Source of the DNA: Candidatus Baldrarchaeota archaeon
GTDB lineage: Archaea > Asgardarchaeota > Baldrarchaeia > Baldrarchaeales > DXJG01
Direction: 5' to 3'
DNA: 16,141 bases
Assembly: GCA_019056805.1 (NCBI GenBank)
Contig: DXJG01000011.1
Coordinates: 1-16,141 of the forward strand
Shown here: one piece after another, positions 5,303-14,775 of the stretch
Layout of the letters: each line of letters opens with the position of its first letter
Numbering within the stretch: the stretch's first letter is position 1
Made by a program: the position numbers and the translations under genes
Notes under the pieces: generated by a model
Database searches by the model: none
Seen by the model: the letters and a program-made list of their open reading frames with translations, nothing else
Told to the model about the DNA's origin: nothing

Positions 5303-6631
5303 ATGACATTACTTCATATCGGAATCGATGATACGGACTCACTTATTGGCGGTTGTACCACTTACATAGGTGCTAGGCTAGTTCATCGACTAGAAAAAGA
5401 AACAAAAGCCAAATTCATCGATTATCCAAACCTTATAAGATTAAACCCAAACATCCCATACAAAACAAGAGGAAACGGAGCTGTATGTCTAAGAATAAAC
5501 ATAGAAGAAAATATGATAGAAGATGTAGAAAACATTGTTATCGAAGAAGTAGAAGAAAACTCCGACCTAAAATGCGAAGAAACACATCCCGGAATCGTTT
5601 TCTTCAAAGGAAACGTCCCACCTGAACTTAAAAAATTCGCAAAGAAAGCTGTAACTGATGTCATAATGCTCGACGAAGCTCTAAAAATAGTAAACAAAAC
5701 CGGTGCAAAAATAAAAACCTACAAAAAGGGAAGAGGCATCATAGGGGCCCTGGCAGCCATCGGAAACACTTTAGAAAAAGACCACACATATGAACTGTTA
5801 TCCTACAGGTCCCCAGAACATTGGGGAACCCCCAGAACCATAGATGAAGACTCAGTTTATCTAATGGACAAGCTAACAAACCCAGAAACCTTCAACAACA
5901 TAGACAAGGAAACCAAAAGAATATTAATTACTCCCCACGGACCCGACCCAGTACTATATGGAATAAGAGGAGAAACCCCAGAAATAGTTAAACTAGCATC
6001 AAAAATCGTAGTATCATACGAGCCAATAGAAAGATGGGTAATATATAGAACAAACCAGGGAACAGATGAACACCTAACAAAACTAAGAAAAATAAAAGAA
6101 ATAAAACTATATCAACCAGCAAAAACCCTCGTAAAAATAATAGAACCACCTAAAATCATACCAGGAGGACATGTAATAGTAAAAGCGGCAGACAACACAG
6201 CAACCATCGATCTCGCTGCATACGAACCAACAGGAAACTTCAGAAAAATCATCCAAAAACTAATCCCAGGAGACACCATAATCGCGTACGGAGGAGTAAA
6301 ACCCCAAGAAAACAAACCTCTAACATTAAACCTGGAAAAAATAGAAATACTAAACTTAGCACCAAAAATAATATACAAAAACCCCAAATGCTCGAAATGC
6401 GGTAAAAGAATGAAATCAGCAGGAAAAAACCAAGGATACCGCTGCAAAAAATGCAAAACCCATGCAAAAAACATAGAAAAAGAAAAAATACAAATACCAA
6501 GAGAAATAAAGCCAGGAATATACCTACCGACACCAAGAGCACACAGACACCTTACTAAACCCCTTCAAAGATACGGCAGGGAAAAGAAAAACAAACCAAA
6601 AAAACTCATAGAAAAATGGCATTACCCCTAA
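5303..6631 (+). CDS. tiaS: tRNA(Ile2) agmatinylcytidine synthetase TiaS
   Basis: IGIDDTDS..GGCTTY, LIRLNPNIPYKTRGNGA, GRGIIGALAAIG, PHGPDPVLYGIRG, TNQGTDEHL, GGHV (OB fold), zinc ribbon CSKC..CKKC and RHLTKP. Confidence 0.96.
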   Translation: MTLLHIGIDDTDSLIGGCTTYIGARLVHRLEKETKAKFIDYPNLIRLNPNIPYKTRGNGAVCLRINIEENMIEDVENIVIEEVEENSDLKCEETHPGIVFFKGNVPPELKKFAKKAVTDVIMLDEALKIVNKTGAKIKTYKKGRGIIGALAAIGNTLEKDHTYELLSYRSPEHWGTPRTIDEDSVYLMDKLTNPETFNNIDKETKRILITPHGPDPVLYGIRGETPEIVKLASKIVVSYEPIERWVIYRTNQGTDEHLTKLRKIKEIKLYQPAKTLVKIIEPPKIIPGGHVIVKAADNTATIDLAAYEPTGNFRKIIQKLIPGDTIIAYGGVKPQENKPLTLNLEKIEILNLAPKIIYKNPKCSKCGKRMKSAGKNQGYRCKKCKTHAKNIEKEKIQIPREIKPGIYLPTPRAHRHLTKPLQRYGREKKNKPKKLIEKWHYP

Positions 6632-6685: not shown

Positions 6686-6703
6686 CAACGATAAATTTAA
6701 AAA
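6686..6703 (+). promoter_or_regulatory. Putative BRE/TATA promoter of tRNA-iMet
   Basis: CAACGATAAATTTAAAAA with TTTAAAA at 6696-6702. Typical archaeal spacing puts the start site near 6724-6728. Confidence 0.5.
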
Positions 6704-6726
6704 ACAAAAATATCACACACTAACAT

Positions 6727-6748
6727 AGCGGGGCAAAACACAGCGGGG
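6727..6748 (+). repeat. Direct repeat AGCGGGG (6727-6733 and 6742-6748), 8-nt spacer CAAAACAC; the repeat unit equals tRNA-iMet nt 1-7
   Basis: Seen directly: AGCGGGG-CAAAACAC-AGCGGGG. The upstream copy is a G-rich stretch in a flank that is otherwise almost free of G. Confidence 0.85.
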
Positions 6749-6779
6749 ACTACCCCAATACAAAATTGGGTAGCCGCAA
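6749..6779 (+). other. 31-nt non-canonical tRNA intron between nt 7 and 8
   Basis: Bulge-helix geometry: central helix GCGG(6743-46):CCGC(6774-77), 5' bulge GG|A, intron helix CUACCC(C)AAU:AUUGGGUAG, 3' bulge AA|U. Cutting after the second nt of each bulge joins G7 to U8 exactly. Confidence 0.85.
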
Positions 6780-6811
6780 TGGGGTAGCCAGGAGATCCCG
6801 CGGGGCTCATA

Positions 6812-6843
6812 AGCCCGACAGATACATCCTCTCGGGTTAAGAA
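6812..6843 (+). other. 32-nt canonical 37/38 tRNA intron
   Basis: Central helix CUCA:UAAG (one C:A mismatch), 5' bulge UA|A, intron helix GCCCGA:UCGGGU, 3' bulge AA|A. Confidence 0.92.
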
Positions 6844-6888
6844 ACCCCGAGATCGGAGGTTCAAATCCTCCCCCCGCTACCATATACC

Positions 6889-6920
6889 TTTACCTTTTTT
6901 GGTGGTTTTTTGTGGGTTTT
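6889..6920 (+). terminator. Oligo(T) terminator tracts after tRNA-iMet
   Basis: T6 runs at 6895-6900 and 6906-6911, immediately after CCA. Confidence 0.55.
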
Positions 6921-7466: not shown

Positions 7467-8942
7467 ATGAATACTAAGTTGACTAAGTTGGTAGGTGCGG
7501 CAATTATTGTGGTGCTACTTTCATTAACGGTCTATGGATGTTACGAATTATTGCTCAACGAGTCGGAGAAACCGTGCACAGCAAAGGTGAAAATGCATAT
7601 AATCCCGGTGGATGAGAAAGGAAAAGAGGTCCGGTGGAACTTCTGCACAGCAATACATAATTTTACCGAGTACTGGGCTAAGCCGCATAGCGAAGTAGTA
7701 TATCTAGGAACCAAAAGAACGGTGACATTGAATGTGCATAGAGAACTACTTATTGGAGGAAGATTGCTTATCCATGAATATGCCATCTTCCTGTATAATG
7801 GTACGCACTCGGGTGGAAAGCTGGTTCGTATAGAGCCTAGGGAGTACCGTATTGAACTTTCCATCAGAATACGTGTATATAGGGTATCTGAAAACTCACA
7901 TTCACCTCTAAGAAAAGTCGTACCACCCCTACTTAACTCGTCGTCAGAACCAGTAAAAGGTTATTGCTATGAGGAACTCGAAGAAGTTGTATATACGTCA
8001 GAATTGATGCCTGCTTTACAACTTCATTCAATAGGAGGAATTTCCGTTAGCGTCCACTTTGAAATAGGCAACTACTTATTCTATTCTCAAAAGTATAGAG
8101 AAGCAGATCTACCGGGTGAGTGGGGTCCTTGGCAGACATCTGGCGATAAGGCCACAAAATCTAACAATAAACTCACAACGGGATCAATTTCGGGTGGCAG
8201 TAAAAAGTGGATCTACGTAAACGTAGATTATAGATATGAGCGATGGTTTTACGGGGTGGATTGGGTCCAATGGTGGAGGGAAATAGTGACGCCAGTGAGT
8301 TTTGGAGGATATGACTGGGGTGAGTCTATATCATGCACTTACTGTGAAGGAACTCCTACAGGCTTTGTACAGAGCTATCCTAGGGGCACTGGAATGCCTA
8401 TCGAAATGAGCCTAGGTCCAGGCATCAGCGAGATTGAGAGATCAGGTATAAGCGTATCCTTCGAGGTGTCTTATGGTGTGGTCTCCCTGACTGTAGAGTT
8501 ATGGTATGAAATAGAGAGAGGTGAAGCTCTCTATCCTCCATCAATACTGGTTAATGTAGATACATGGTACGCTGACACTTTATATGTCTTCGATGCCAGC
8601 ACCGAGTGGAAGGTAGTGCATTTCACGTGGAGTGGCGGAGGTAGTGGTGGTATGGTTTTTAGGCGTGGTGTTTTTAGGGTTTCTGATTATTGGGTTAGGG
8701 AATGTATTTCTTGGTTTGTTAGGGATCTTGATCTTAATAGATTGGGTGATTTCTTTATTGTTGGTCTGGGTTGTGGTTATAGTCCTTTCCATAAGTATCT
8801 TGAAGATGTAGTTAGGGTTGAAGGTAAGGCTCGTGATATTGAGGTGTATACGGGTTACTATGAAGGGGTTAAGGTATCTGCTATTGCGACTCCTGGTGGT
8901 ATGGTTCATACGGAGCCTGTGGTGATTTTGGGAGGTTGCTAG
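7467..8942 (+). CDS. Hypothetical secreted or membrane-anchored protein (~395 aa) fused in frame to the N-terminal ~96 aa of a nucleoside phosphorylase
   Basis: N-terminal basic plus hydrophobic segment (KLTKLVGAAIIVVLLSLTVYGCY), sequons NFT, NGT and NSS, beta-rich aromatic body, then a GGGSGG linker. From ATG 8652 the sequence resembles a PNP/UDP N-terminus (YTGYYEGVKVSAIATPGG). Confidence 0.65.
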   Translation: MNTKLTKLVGAAIIVVLLSLTVYGCYELLLNESEKPCTAKVKMHIIPVDEKGKEVRWNFCTAIHNFTEYWAKPHSEVVYLGTKRTVTLNVHRELLIGGRLLIHEYAIFLYNGTHSGGKLVRIEPREYRIELSIRIRVYRVSENSHSPLRKVVPPLLNSSSEPVKGYCYEELEEVVYTSELMPALQLHSIGGISVSVHFEIGNYLFYSQKYREADLPGEWGPWQTSGDKATKSNNKLTTGSISGGSKKWIYVNVDYRYERWFYGVDWVQWWREIVTPVSFGGYDWGESISCTYCEGTPTGFVQSYPRGTGMPIEMSLGPGISEIERSGISVSFEVSYGVVSLTVELWYEIERGEALYPPSILVNVDTWYADTLYVFDASTEWKVVHFTWSGGGSGGMVFRRGVFRVSDYWVRECISWFVRDLDLNRLGDFFIVGLGCGYSPFHKYLEDVVRVEGKARDIEVYTGYYEGVKVSAIATPGGMVHTEPVVILGGC

Positions 8943-9560: not shown

Positions 9561-12500
9561 CTAGTTTTGTTCTTCGGTGGGGTGTATGATTTTTTGGTTG
9601 ATGAGGATTTTTAGGGTTTTTAGGGTTTTTAGTGGGTTTATTTTTTCTTTTTTGGTTACTTCTGTTAGTAGTTTTGCTATGGTGAATGATCCTTCTATTT
9701 CTGTGATTTCTTTCGCTACTTTTAATATTTTTCTTTTGATTCCTCTAATTCTTGGAGGGATTTCTGTGACTTCGTATTTTGTGAAGATGTGTTTTGGGAA
9801 GCTTTCTTTTACTATGTTTTTGGCTTTGTCAAAAATTGATATTTCGAAGGTGTTGGTTTTAAGGTTTTTTTCGAATTTGTCTTCAAATTTGTCTAGGAAG
9901 TTTCTTAGGGATTCTTTTATTTCTGGGAGTAGTTTTCCGGGTGCTATGAGTATTGAGTAGGCGTATTTTCCTGAGTGGAATGTTAGTACTTTGGGTTCTG
10001 GGGTTTCGTAGTATATTTCTCCAATTTCTCCTTCTCCTGTGCCTCCGATTTCGGAGTAGAATCCTCTTACTGCTTGGACAAATCCTGCTACGATGTTTGG
10101 GTCTGTAGGTGTCTTTTTGAAGGAGTATTCGAATATGCAGCGTCCGCTTTCTTTGTCGACGACTAGGAGAGATTCTAGGCTGTTGAGTTCTAATATGAGT
10201 TCGTATTCTCGTAGAAGTTTTTTGTTTTCTGTTTTTATTTTGTGTTTTCTTTTTGATATGTATCCGAAGGTTCCTATAAAGATGATAGATGTGATTAATA
10301 TTATTGTGGTAAGCCAGCGTGGAAGTAGGGATTTCGAAGTTGAAATAGAGGGTTTGATTGTGATGTTGTAGGTGGTGTGTGCGGAGGTTTTATCGGTCAT
10401 TCCTTCGTAAACTACTGTTATTTGTATTTTGGACATTTCGTTATTTGTTGGTATGGTGTATGAGAATTCTCCTTTCGTGTTTGTTACGGTTTCGTATTCA
10501 AATTGTTTCTTTGTTCCATTTTTGTAAGTCACTAAGACTATTATTTTGATGGTTGCCATGCCTATTGGATCTTTGTTTTCTGTGGTTAGAGTTCCTGATA
10601 TTAATATGGTGTTGCCAGCAGTTACTTCTTGTGGGACATTAACTGTAAGTATTGTGCGTGTTTTTGGTAGAATGTAAAGTGGAATTTCAAGTGTTTGTGG
10701 AAGATAGTATGGTGCCTCTATTACTACGTTTATTGAATAGTTGCCGGGTTGGAGTCCTGTTAGGTTTAAAGTGCAGCTATAGTTTTGATAGTTAAATGTT
10801 GCAAGCCATTTATGGTTGTTTACGGTTAATGTGATGCTGCAGTTTTCTAATGGAGTGTTTCGGAAAGAATCTATGATGTTAAAGTGTATTGTTATTGTTT
10901 CGTTTTCATATTGTTTAAGGACTTGGGGTTGATATGTTATTTTCATTTTTCCATAAATTGTTAGGTATCCTTTCCATGTTTTGGTTTCATGATTTGGGCA
11001 GTTTACCATGATGGAGATGGAGTAGTTGCCGACATATTGTGTTATGTTAAAGTAGATGGTTGATGAGTTGCTAAAGATTGTAAGTACTGATTCGTTGAGA
11101 TAAATTGTGCCATTAAAGTGGGTTATTGGGTTTCCCCATTGATCTGTATAGTTTATTGATATTGTAAACTGTTGTCCGGCTTCTATTTCTTTGGGGCATA
11201 ATACATCAAGATTCGTTTTCTTGGGCATTATGCGAATTGTGATGTTTATTTCTTTGGGTTCATAGCTCTCTTTTGAACATTGAATTGTCATATTGTACGT
11301 TCCTAGTTCATGAAAAGTTGTTATATTTATGTATGCCGTGCCATTATATTCGAAAATGTATTTTGATGTCCCAATGTATCCTATAACGGTTGCATTTTCA
11401 AGATGTGTGCCATTAATATCTGTGTAATAGATGGTTATTGTTAATGGGGTTTCATAGTTTCCAATTATGGTTTCATTTGGCATGCTTACATTTGTTGAAT
11501 ACACAAATGTGATGTTAAAGCTGAGGATTGCATCTTCATATCCCGTTTTTTGAGCGTATACGGTCAAGGAATGATTCCCAGAAGAATATCCCTTTGTGGT
11601 GAGGTTGGCGGCATATATACCTTCTCCTTCATCTTTGAAGTAAGTAACTTGGTTGTTCCACGTTGTCCAGACCGTTGCACCTTCTATTCCGGTATCGTGA
11701 ACTTTATCAACATATTTTACCTTTACTGTTGCATTTTCACCTATACAATAATAGGGAGCAGTATGGCTTTCAAGAAATGCGGAATACACAAATAAAACAT
11801 TACCAATGTACAGGTAACCAGCTTCGAATCCTGTAAGAAAAAGTGTTGCAATAATGTATGTTCCATTTGTAAATGACTTATCTGGTGTCCAGTAGATTCC
11901 TAGTGATGACTTATTGTTGGTTGGTTGCGAAGTATTGTAATAGAGAATATTATCTGAGGAGTTGTATACTAAGAAGGTGAGGGTCCCGTTCCAATCATGA
12001 GCTCCTGGTATTAGAAGAATTAAAAAGGAATTTTCTTCGTCTATAATAACGGGTGAGGGAGAATCGATTTTTTTAACGTAGTTGGGACTAGTGAACTCTA
12101 TGCGCCAGTTATCGTAAACATATAAAGTAATGTTTTTCCAGTTTGCTGCAGTAATTGGTGTTTCCTCTATGTCTGTTATATTCCAGCATCTGGAGACATT
12201 CCAATCTTTTGGAACTTTGAATGTAACACTACAATTTGTAAAGGTTGACGGAAAGGTTTCAGAGGGTGAAACGTTCCAGAAAACTGTAGTAGTATCAGCA
12301 TCTGCTAAAAATCTTGTCAGACACCGACTGTCTTTGTCGTGTTTCATAAGGTAATTTAGATCAAAGGTTATGTTCCAAAGAGAAGTTATGTTAAACGTTA
12401 TACTTTCGCTATTGTTGAGTACGCCCTCTAGTTCTATGATTCCACTATTCGGTACTTGTGTTCCGTTAACTTGAAGATTTATTTCTGAAGGTGAGAGGGA

Positions 12501-13379
12501 TAGGTCGAGTGGTTGAAGATTTAAATCCATGACCATATCGATATTTGAGATGTTGTACGTGTTTGATATCCAGACATCTTCTTCGTTTTCTCCATCCGTA
12601 GCGTCGTTAACACAATACCACCAAAAATCGTATGCTTTTGGCGCGGGAGGTCCTGCTTCGGCTTCTAACCGTATGAAAAATGTGTTATTATCCGTTTCGT
12701 TGGTGAGAAGTGTAACATTGATATTTAGTGATAGAAAAAACTGGTCTAAAGAGGATGCGGTTTCAAACAGGGTTTCTCCACTTTTAATTATTTTGTCAGG
12801 ATACGAAGTATTAGAGAGAGAATTCCACGTAGAGTTTAAGATAGCCCACCTCAAAGTAAAACTACCGTCAACGTAAACCAAGATTTGTACCGTATCTAGG
12901 TGGCATGACATAGGTAGGGTAAAAGAAGCGTATACGGTTAGATTCTGGTCATTACTATTTTCAAAGAATTTTACGTAACCATCTGGACTATCCTCTTCTA
13001 TTATTTTTGAGAAATTTTGCGGTGTTATTTTTTCAAATTTAAGCCTTATATTACTCGTACTATATCCATAAGTCTTTACTTGAGTAATATTGGCAAACTT
13101 GTCAAATCTTCTATTTGTATCGATAAAAAAATGATTCGTGGAAGCATTACCAAGCGATCTATTTTGTTGTCCATAAAGAATTGTCAAAATTCTTGATCCA
13201 TTTCCCTTAATATATGGTTGAAATGTTTCTATCGAGTCTGTTTCAATAATATTATCATTTTCTAAGCATCTGGAGGGAGGAGAAGTTACCCAGAGGACGC
13301 TGAATATTAATGGTAAAATTAATAGTATGAAAATTTGCCTAGTTCTTCGGGAACTCTTTAACAACTGGGTACCTCCCAA
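9561..13379 (-). CDS. Large single-pass surface protein: signal anchor, ~1000-aa glycosylated ectodomain with about five Ig-like repeats, TM helix, cytoplasmic longin-like and winged-helix-like domains
   Basis: N-terminal RRTRQIFILLILPLIFSVLW, many NxS/T sequons, and repeats of the type (V/I)xYxD..G.P(I/L)..A.V..Y.(L/I)T(V/I)...K.GY. TM WLTTIILITSIIFIGTFGYI (~10260-10315) is followed by SKRKHK, then LLVVDKESGRCIFEYSF..DPNIVAGFVQAVRGFYSEI. The likely start is TTG 13364, 6 nt after GGAGGT. Confidence 0.8.
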   Translation of the reverse strand: MGGTQLLKSSRRTRQIFILLILPLIFSVLWVTSPPSRCLENDNIIETDSIETFQPYIKGNGSRILTILYGQQNRSLGNASTNHFFIDTNRRFDKFANITQVKTYGYSTSNIRLKFEKITPQNFSKIIEEDSPDGYVKFFENSNDQNLTVYASFTLPMSCHLDTVQILVYVDGSFTLRWAILNSTWNSLSNTSYPDKIIKSGETLFETASSLDQFFLSLNINVTLLTNETDNNTFFIRLEAEAGPPAPKAYDFWWYCVNDATDGENEEDVWISNTYNISNIDMVMDLNLQPLDLSLSPSEINLQVNGTQVPNSGIIELEGVLNNSESITFNITSLWNITFDLNYLMKHDKDSRCLTRFLADADTTTVFWNVSPSETFPSTFTNCSVTFKVPKDWNVSRCWNITDIEETPITAANWKNITLYVYDNWRIEFTSPNYVKKIDSPSPVIIDEENSFLILLIPGAHDWNGTLTFLVYNSSDNILYYNTSQPTNNKSSLGIYWTPDKSFTNGTYIIATLFLTGFEAGYLYIGNVLFVYSAFLESHTAPYYCIGENATVKVKYVDKVHDTGIEGATVWTTWNNQVTYFKDEGEGIYAANLTTKGYSSGNHSLTVYAQKTGYEDAILSFNITFVYSTNVSMPNETIIGNYETPLTITIYYTDINGTHLENATVIGYIGTSKYIFEYNGTAYINITTFHELGTYNMTIQCSKESYEPKEINITIRIMPKKTNLDVLCPKEIEAGQQFTISINYTDQWGNPITHFNGTIYLNESVLTIFSNSSTIYFNITQYVGNYSISIMVNCPNHETKTWKGYLTIYGKMKITYQPQVLKQYENETITIHFNIIDSFRNTPLENCSITLTVNNHKWLATFNYQNYSCTLNLTGLQPGNYSINVVIEAPYYLPQTLEIPLYILPKTRTILTVNVPQEVTAGNTILISGTLTTENKDPIGMATIKIIVLVTYKNGTKKQFEYETVTNTKGEFSYTIPTNNEMSKIQITVVYEGMTDKTSAHTTYNITIKPSISTSKSLLPRWLTTIILITSIIFIGTFGYISKRKHKIKTENKKLLREYELILELNSLESLLVVDKESGRCIFEYSFKKTPTDPNIVAGFVQAVRGFYSEIGGTGEGEIGEIYYETPEPKVLTFHSGKYAYSILIAPGKLLPEIKESLRNFLDKFEDKFEKNLKTNTFEISIFDKAKNIVKESFPKHIFTKYEVTEIPPRIRGIKRKILKVAKEITEIEGSFTIAKLLTEVTKKEKINPLKTLKTLKILINQKIIHPTEEQN

Positions 13380-14697: not shown

Positions 14698-14775
14698 TGG
14701 TGGGCCCGGAGGGATTTGAACCCTCGACCGCCCGGTTATGAGCCGGACGCTCTAACCTGGCTAAGCTACGGGCCC
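14698..14775 (-). tRNA. tRNA-Ile2(CAU), intronless, CCA encoded (TiaS substrate)
   Basis: Reverse complement GGGCCCG-UA-GCUU-AGCCAGGUUA-GAGC-G-UCCGG-CUCAUAA-CCGGG-CGGUC-GAGGG-UUCAAAU-CCCUC-CGGGCCC-A-CCA, 78 nt. The GGGCCC acceptor is the isoleucine type, and it closely matches the recalled Archaeoglobus tRNA-Ile2. Confidence 0.9.

Follow-up and report, generated by a model that had tools for sequence, protein, structure and literature searches.

The window, that is the whole stretch of 16,141 nucleotides analysed here, came from the 1.92-Mb MAG of a heat-loving Asgard archaeon (35% GC, 91% complete, 18 contigs). Judged from its bases, the plus strand between 6742 and 6882 very probably carried a true initiator tRNA gene interrupted by a true BHB intron between tRNA nucleotides 7 and 8. 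A canonical intron was present as well, and a second AGCGGGG, identical to the first exon, stood upstream of the gene. The features were as follows.

6693 to 6704, plus strand: TATA-like promoter element AAATTTAAAAAA, read directly.
6727 to 6733, plus strand: leader copy AGCGGGG, an exact 7-mer repeat, proposed to act as a placeholder on the 3' acceptor strand.
6734 to 6741, plus strand: leader spacer CAAAACAC, 8 nt, between the leader copy and exon 1.
6742 to 6748, plus strand: exon 1, AGCGGGG, tRNA nucleotides 1-7, with nucleotides 2-5 supplying the 5' side of the central BHB helix.
6749 to 6779, plus strand: intron 1 at position 7/8, 31 nt, from a base read and an excision ranking; inner helix 6750-6755:6768-6773, 12-nt loop, CCGC at 6774-6777 and an AA end.
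6780 to 6811, plus strand: exon 2, UGGGGUAGCCAGGAGAUCCCGCGGGGCUCAUA, opening with UGGGGUAGCC, assigned by ARAGORN; tRNA nucleotides 8-37, comprising the D arm, the 5' strand of the anticodon stem and CUCAUA.
6812 to 6843, plus strand: intron 2 at the canonical position 37/38, 32 nt, from the ARAGORN intron call with pairing by eye.
6844 to 6882, plus strand: exon 3, tRNA nucleotides 38-76, ACCCCG...CCCCGCUACCA, ending in the 3' acceptor strand CCCCGCU, the discriminator A and an encoded CCA (6880-6882).

When 6742-6748, 6780-6811 and 6844-6882 were joined, ARAGORN reported a 78-nt tRNA-Met(CAU) with a perfect cloverleaf. This agreed with the initial annotation, which had proposed an initiator tRNA with one intron exactly at 7/8 and another at the canonical site. 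The spliced product read AGCGGGG...CCCCGCU and CGGGG-CUCAUAA-CCCCG, and it had the features of an archaeal initiator tRNA, namely A1:U72, a GGG:CCC anticodon stem, the CAU anticodon and an encoded CCA. The 7/8 junction was unique because A, instead of U8, followed 6748 and A, instead of G7, preceded 6780. The three exons were colinear within 141 nt, and the gene was neither split nor permuted.

It had been anticipated that standard scanners would truncate or miss this gene, and they did. In its default mode ARAGORN missed it and reported only the elongator tRNA-Met(CAU) at 14698-14775 on the minus strand, which had G1:C72 and was distinct from the initiator gene. With introns allowed, the gene start was put at 6778 and AAUGGGG was taken as the acceptor strand, giving a model with an acceptor mismatch and a degenerate D arm. 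The Rfam tRNA model scored the gene at 27.8 bits against a cut-off of 29 bits. For comparison, tRNAscan-SE 2.0 lengthens its candidates by 60 nt to catch introns close to the gene ends (PMC8450103).

The bulge-helix geometry described for intron 1 (GCGG:CCGC, GG|A, AA|U and a strong hairpin) was found as claimed. Its central helix paired GCGG (6743-6746, tRNA nucleotides 2-5) with CCGC (6774-6777), all four pairs being Watson-Crick, and cuts within the 5' bulge GG|A (6747-6749) and the 3' bulge AA|U (6778-6780) yielded the G7-U8 join. A 6-bp inner helix h' (CUACCC:GGGUAG) started straight after the 5' bulge. The outer helix h, already noted as weak, was essentially absent, and with its one flanking helix the motif belonged to class HBh'. 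This is one of the canonical BHB classes in a recent Asgard census; with four of four central pairs and a flanking helix, the motif was not especially relaxed, contrary to the earlier description. Among 200,000 shuffles of the insert, a 4-bp helix appeared in 1.5%, a helix with an inner stem of at least 2 bp in 0.1%, and a helix with an inner stem of at least 6 bp in none. Moreover, 6749-6779 ranked first as an HBh' when compared with every excision possible in 6700-6900 (9,323 in all). Since the central helix took acceptor nucleotides 2-5, the splicing helix and the acceptor stem were mutually exclusive, as had been pointed out. Unconstrained MFE folding restricted to the 5' region did not return the BHB (z = -1.55); it made up a sizeable fraction of the ensemble in the partition function but was not the MFE of that region.

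Intron 2 was of the hBHBh' class, with a central helix CUCA:UAAG containing one C.A mismatch, an inner helix GCCCGA:UCGGGU and both flanking helices. A blastn-short search of the host's own genome returned no further copy of either intron, and therefore there was no sign of intron transposition.

The host genome encoded both a splicing endonuclease and an RNA ligase, namely two EndA paralogues and RtcB. The 184-aa EndA aligned end to end and almost without gaps with the catalytic subunit of A. pernix, and also with those of S. tokodaii and P. aerophilum, and it kept the GPGIDHAPF motif with the catalytic histidine that was mutated in PDB 3AJV. In the alignment, one of its lysines fell opposite Lys44 in the specificity loop of the A. 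pernix enzyme, a residue whose role was reportedly studied by Hirata et al. in 2011. The 178-aa paralogue had both EndA domains and was devoid of a GPGIDHAPF-type histidine motif. From these sequences we infer that the two proteins would form an EndA heterotetramer, and its substrate range is predicted on the same grounds.

No second initiator tRNA was matched in the 91%-complete assembly, the incompleteness of the MAG leaving room for one; the proposed search for an additional intronless copy in this genome thus came back empty. Many other tRNA genes of the host had introns in the D loop and elsewhere. In Asgard genomes 92-95% of tRNA genes contain introns (PMC11291895), and the earlier statement that non-canonical introns occur mostly in Thermoproteales did not fit a host that is an Asgard archaeon, a group for which heavy intron loads have been published. 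D-loop introns of about 30 nt that start with A and end with AA were seen in the host genome at C6:174771-174876 (minus strand), C17:29567-29676 (plus strand) and C13:19048-19156 (minus strand), and both introns of the initiator gene had the same A-start and AA-end signature. Other short-scoring tRNA matches were considered as 5'-proximal introns and rejected as D-loop introns, for example the tRNA-Val at C6:174771-174845. Runs of N, standing for scaffolded or withheld sequence, broke two tRNA-rich stretches of the assembly (C5 from 3799 onward and C9 at about 475-515), cutting at least one tRNA gene.

Homologues of the 7/8 intron were sought by matching public metagenome contigs to the locus and by a pattern scan. 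A related organism was present in the marine metagenome runs X4 and X5, where a contig matched 6772-6812 and was preceded by AUAGCGGGG-ACUGCUUGUCCUAUGACAAGC. Its insertion site, CCGC and AA|U were as in the window, its stem was different and 9 bp long, and its upstream sequence was known for just 2 nt before exon 1. At the locus L144, to which L080 is identical and whose MAG bears the label Bathyarchaeia, the 7/8 intron was 31 nt long with a 7-bp stem and ended in CCGCAA; the flanking proteins were 31-45% identical to those of the host genome. The locus L121, from another metagenome, had a 30-nt intron at 7/8 with a 10-bp stem, also ending in CCGCAA. The insertion site, central helix and 3' bulge were thus common to four lineages with inner stems of 6 bp (window), 7, 10 and 9 bp, and double pair-preserving changes were found at stem positions 3, 5, 6 and 7, a covariation based on four introns only. 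Such compensatory changes in three other lineages backed the reading of the insert as an intron.

The scan pattern AGCGGGGN{14,44}CCGCNNTGGGGTAG had low specificity and matched mostly by chance in GC-rich bacteria. Two pattern scans gave at least 118 matches each, and the true cases among the matches listed were L080/L144 and L121. One further candidate, from a Desulfurococcales MAG (L249), was rejected as a chance match inside a coding region. By pattern search, a 7/8 intron turned up once among 400 genomes of the host phylum, once among 23 of the order of L144 and once among 250 sampled from its class, Bathyarchaeia. The patterns demanded the exact exon sequence, and divergent 7/8 cases would therefore escape them. 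The same-genus genome G001 (9% contamination) had intronless initiator tRNA genes, and thus the 7/8 intron was either recent or patchy in its distribution. The genus genomes G002 and G003 gave no initiator tRNA match.

In relatives, the introns of initiator tRNA genes sat in the D loop, the anticodon stem, position 37/38, the variable region and the T arm. For instance, two Asgard initiator tRNA genes, one on G027:C65 (L014) and one at G025:C1:470680-470960 on the minus strand (L264), had 3-4 introns each, located in the D loop, the anticodon stem, 37/38 and the variable region or T arm, and none at 7/8. G025, which belongs to the host phylum, has an initiator tRNA gene at precisely the position reported for the complete Atabeyarchaeia-2 genome, and this identifies the phylum as Asgardarchaeota. 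Two other loci, L003 (G006:C33) and L008 (G010:C6), contained just the 3' half of an initiator-like tRNA, from position 38, preceded by unrelated GC-rich hairpin sequence and lying near the contig starts. Such loci may represent initiator tRNA genes that are split (trans-spliced) or have a long intron; G010 also had a separate initiator-like match on its contig C5.

The distance from the TATA-like element to the leader copy AGCGGGG upstream of the gene was 31-32 nt, the usual spacing for tRNA genes here, and the transcript was therefore expected to open with this copy; the putative transcription start lies near 6724-6727. By MFE, the precursor folded with CCCCGCU, the 3' acceptor strand, paired to the leader copy and not to exon 1. 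A leader copy was found at all three complete 7/8 loci (the window, L144 and L121), although these initiator loci may share ancestry, so that three of three overstates their independence. L144 had two extra copies (AGCGGGG-AAU-AGCGGGG-AAU-exon 1) and L121 had one (AGCGGGG-AUGAU-exon 1), and the leader spacers were unrelated between loci in both length and sequence. None of 12 initiator tRNA genes without a 7/8 intron that were compared had a leader copy. Within the host genome, a second candidate 5' strand was found at none of the 30 other tRNA loci, the initiator gene being alone among 31 in this respect.

A comparable arrangement occurred in a different tRNA. In a table of three complete Asgard genomes there was one intron within the first 9 nt, that of a Freyarchaeia tRNA-Thr(CGT) at offset 8; this 8/9 intron, called by tRNAscan-SE, is given in Supplementary Data 4 of PMC11291895 as table coordinates only and is not discussed there. 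At this locus (L265, G039:C1:1545200-1545500, minus strand) the intron was of the HBh' class with the central helix CUCG:CGAG, which used acceptor nucleotides 3-6. An imperfect leader copy, GCCUUCGG, with one extra U, lay 3 nt upstream of GCCUCGG, and pairing of the leader UGGAGCCUUCGG can cover the 3' acceptor strand together with the discriminator and CCA.

The effect of the leader was modelled with partition functions, which describe secondary-structure thermodynamics only. With natural leaders at 37 C, P(BHB) was 0.12 for the window, 0.004 for L144 and 0.33 for L121, and P(exon 1:3' strand) was 1e-5 to 1e-2 at each of the three. When the leader copies were mutated in silico, P(exon 1:3' strand) at these loci climbed to 0.5-0.96, and P(BHB) was cut 5- to 5000-fold at 37-80 C. 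At the Freyarchaeia tRNA-Thr, mutation of the leader lowered P(BHB) 4- to 8-fold; over all four loci P(exon 1:3' strand) rose to 0.4-0.96 and the drop in P(BHB) was 4- to 5000-fold. In the model of the spliced RNA, the leader copy still occupied the 3' strand with P about 0.8-0.96, versus 0.001-0.01 for exon 1. The final strand exchange would therefore need tertiary folding and irreversible cleavage by RNase P, and this modelled preference after splicing is a real weakness of the placeholder proposal.

The processing pathway that we propose would run as follows. The transcript would begin near the start given above, with the second AGCGGGG at its front. This leader copy would occupy the 3' acceptor strand CCCCGCU, and exon 1 would thereby be free to pair with the CCGC of the intron, showing the two 3-nt bulges. 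A two-subunit EndA of the crenarchaeal type would cleave after G7 (6748|6749) and before U8 (6779|6780), RtcB would ligate the exons, and the canonical intron would leave in the same manner. Once the exons are ligated, exon 1 would take the place of the leader copy on the 3' strand. RNase P would then cleave at 6741|6742 and the leader would be lost, CCA being already encoded. The splicing, the positions of its cuts and the start of transcription are all predictions from sequence. That the locus works as an archaeal initiator tRNA gene with two EndA-type introns, processed along such a route, seems probable to us; on whether the leader copy serves as the placeholder, the sequence and the folding models leave us evenly divided.

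Three other explanations were weighed against this proposal. The upstream AGCGGGG (6727-6733) might itself be the true exon 1, with an intron of 46 nt (6734-6779) removed by a relaxed bulge-helix-loop cut. In that case the upstream copy would pair with CCGC, the proximal copy and the hairpin would be intronic, and the mature tRNA would be unchanged, as either copy yields an identical product. The promoter stands at a normal distance from the upstream copy, which in the MFE fold also lies on the 3' strand as in a normal acceptor stem, and broad-specificity EndAs have been reported to cut relaxed BHL and hBH motifs (PMC4033280). However, such an intron would have no helix beside its 5' bulge, AAAACAC being unable to pair with GGGUAG, whereas in four lineages a stem of 6-10 bp begins 1 nt past the proximal copy, in HBh' form and with compensatory changes. 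Furthermore, pairing of the upstream copy with CCGC and of the proximal copy with the 3' strand would cross, producing a pseudoknot. We therefore find a 46-nt intron improbable.

If the 31-nt intron at 7/8 is real, the leader copies could still be neutral by-products, left for example by slippage duplication of a GC-rich 7-mer or by the insertion event itself. The leader of L144 resembles a 10-nt tandem repeat (AGCGGGGAAU x2.7), and the copy is predicted to impede correct folding once splicing is done, both of which would suit neutrality. On the other hand, an exact 7-mer was kept at three loci despite spacers unlike in length and sequence, it was missing from the 12 initiator genes without a 7/8 intron and from the host's other tRNA loci (31 in total), and a leader copy also accompanied the 8/9 intron of a tRNA-Thr in another Asgard class. 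At every locus the copy was predicted to shift the fold toward the BHB. Neutral origin thus appears to us rather unlikely, though clearly less so than the 46-nt intron. Finally, the locus might be a pseudogene, decaying or unspliced, with the working initiator gene hidden in what the assembly lacks; the 18 contigs reach 91% completeness, and intronless copies do exist in the same-genus genome G001. Against this stand the perfect stems of the spliced product, a splicing motif far above chance, an architecture kept with compensatory changes in distant lineages, the intact TATA-like element and encoded CCA, and the introns found in nearly every tRNA gene of the host, and we consider a pseudogene very improbable.

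With respect to known systems, the non-canonical intron positions listed in PMC4090602 were 20/21, 22/23, 25/26, 29/30, 30/31, 45/46, 53/54, 56/57 and 59/60, and the same paper, citing Sugahara 2008, refers to a 3/4 acceptor-stem intron of Thermoproteales as 'an extreme case'. The initial annotation had regarded 7/8 as an uncatalogued position. Introns of the acceptor region had already been recorded at 3/4 and 8/9, and what is left of that claim is a modest positional novelty, judged against the positions in PMC4090602 and PMC11291895. As far as the account in PMC4090602 describes it, the Thermoproteales 3/4 intron resembles the present one in being spliced by proteins, in having a 4-bp helix with 3-nt bulges, in lying outside the anticodon loop and in having a host whose EndA is made of two subunits (predicted for the present host). 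Both introns lie inside or next to the acceptor stem and therefore compete with it. Within the limits of that account, the differences are the position 7/8, the Asgard host and the initiator tRNA. The Freyarchaeia tRNA-Thr(CGT) shares HBh', a 3' bulge (AA|A), a short exon 1, a leader copy and a modelled fold switch. It differs in that the intron lies one nucleotide later (8/9) in another tRNA of another class, and in that its leader copy is imperfect with pairing that reaches the discriminator and CCA.

Surveys of Asgard tRNA introns describe the same phylum, with several introns per gene, many of them unannotated, with HBh', hBH and hBHBh' boundaries, and with two EndA paralogues in most genomes; in contrast to the present case, most extra introns there are in the D arm. 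In the split and permuted tRNAs of Nanoarchaeum and Thermofilum (PMC4090602, PMC3218864), flanks outside the tRNA likewise shape the substrate of EndA. However, those flanks make the BHB itself, whereas here the pieces are colinear, the BHB forms in cis and the leader is proposed to sit on the competing 3' acceptor strand. The papers searched, which treat the Thermoproteales introns at second hand, contain no account of an acceptor-strand leader copy. Thus, the intron itself belongs to a known kind, and the leader copy may be the new part. We give even odds to the broader idea that introns borrowing acceptor nucleotides become spliceable through a second 5' acceptor strand in the leader, which guards the 3' strand until excision and is later discarded by RNase P. 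This would constitute a hitherto undescribed class of pre-tRNA folding element in the initiator tRNAs of Asgard archaea and Bathyarchaeia and in an Asgard tRNA-Thr.

Every protein of this host apparently starts with a tRNA that needs the loss of an intron near its 5' end, and in this tRNA splicing works directly against folding. With this case, the range of archaeal intron positions on record reaches the acceptor/D junction of an essential and apparently single-copy tRNA, in a type of gene that common scanners mis-call. If the leader copy is indeed a placeholder, it would be a simple answer to how introns persist where the helix needed for splicing rules out that of the mature tRNA, and vice versa, and it would provide a signature for hidden introns near the acceptor stem. 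This bears on the question of what sets where tRNA introns can persist in Asgard archaea.

The remainder of the window contained several other genes. A full-length archaeal RNase P RNA was located at 210-601 on the plus strand (Rfam RF00373, 178 bits), with several expansion segments relative to the Rfam model. The ORFs at 7467-8942 (plus strand, 491 aa) and 9561-13379 (minus strand, 1272 aa) had no Pfam match at E<=1e-5. A search for orthologous loci within the genus gave no match to the ORF downstream of the initiator tRNA, and the four nearest genomes searched held no homologue of the 491-aa product. Directly upstream of the initiator tRNA, at 5303-6631 on the plus strand, was the gene for TiaS, the agmatidine synthetase acting on the CAU anticodon of tRNA-Ile2. 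In the genus genome G003 the TiaS gene stopped at a contig edge, and in G004 it did not adjoin the initiator tRNA gene. In the window, three genes related to CAU tRNAs lay within 10 kb, namely those for TiaS, the initiator tRNA and the elongator tRNA-Met.
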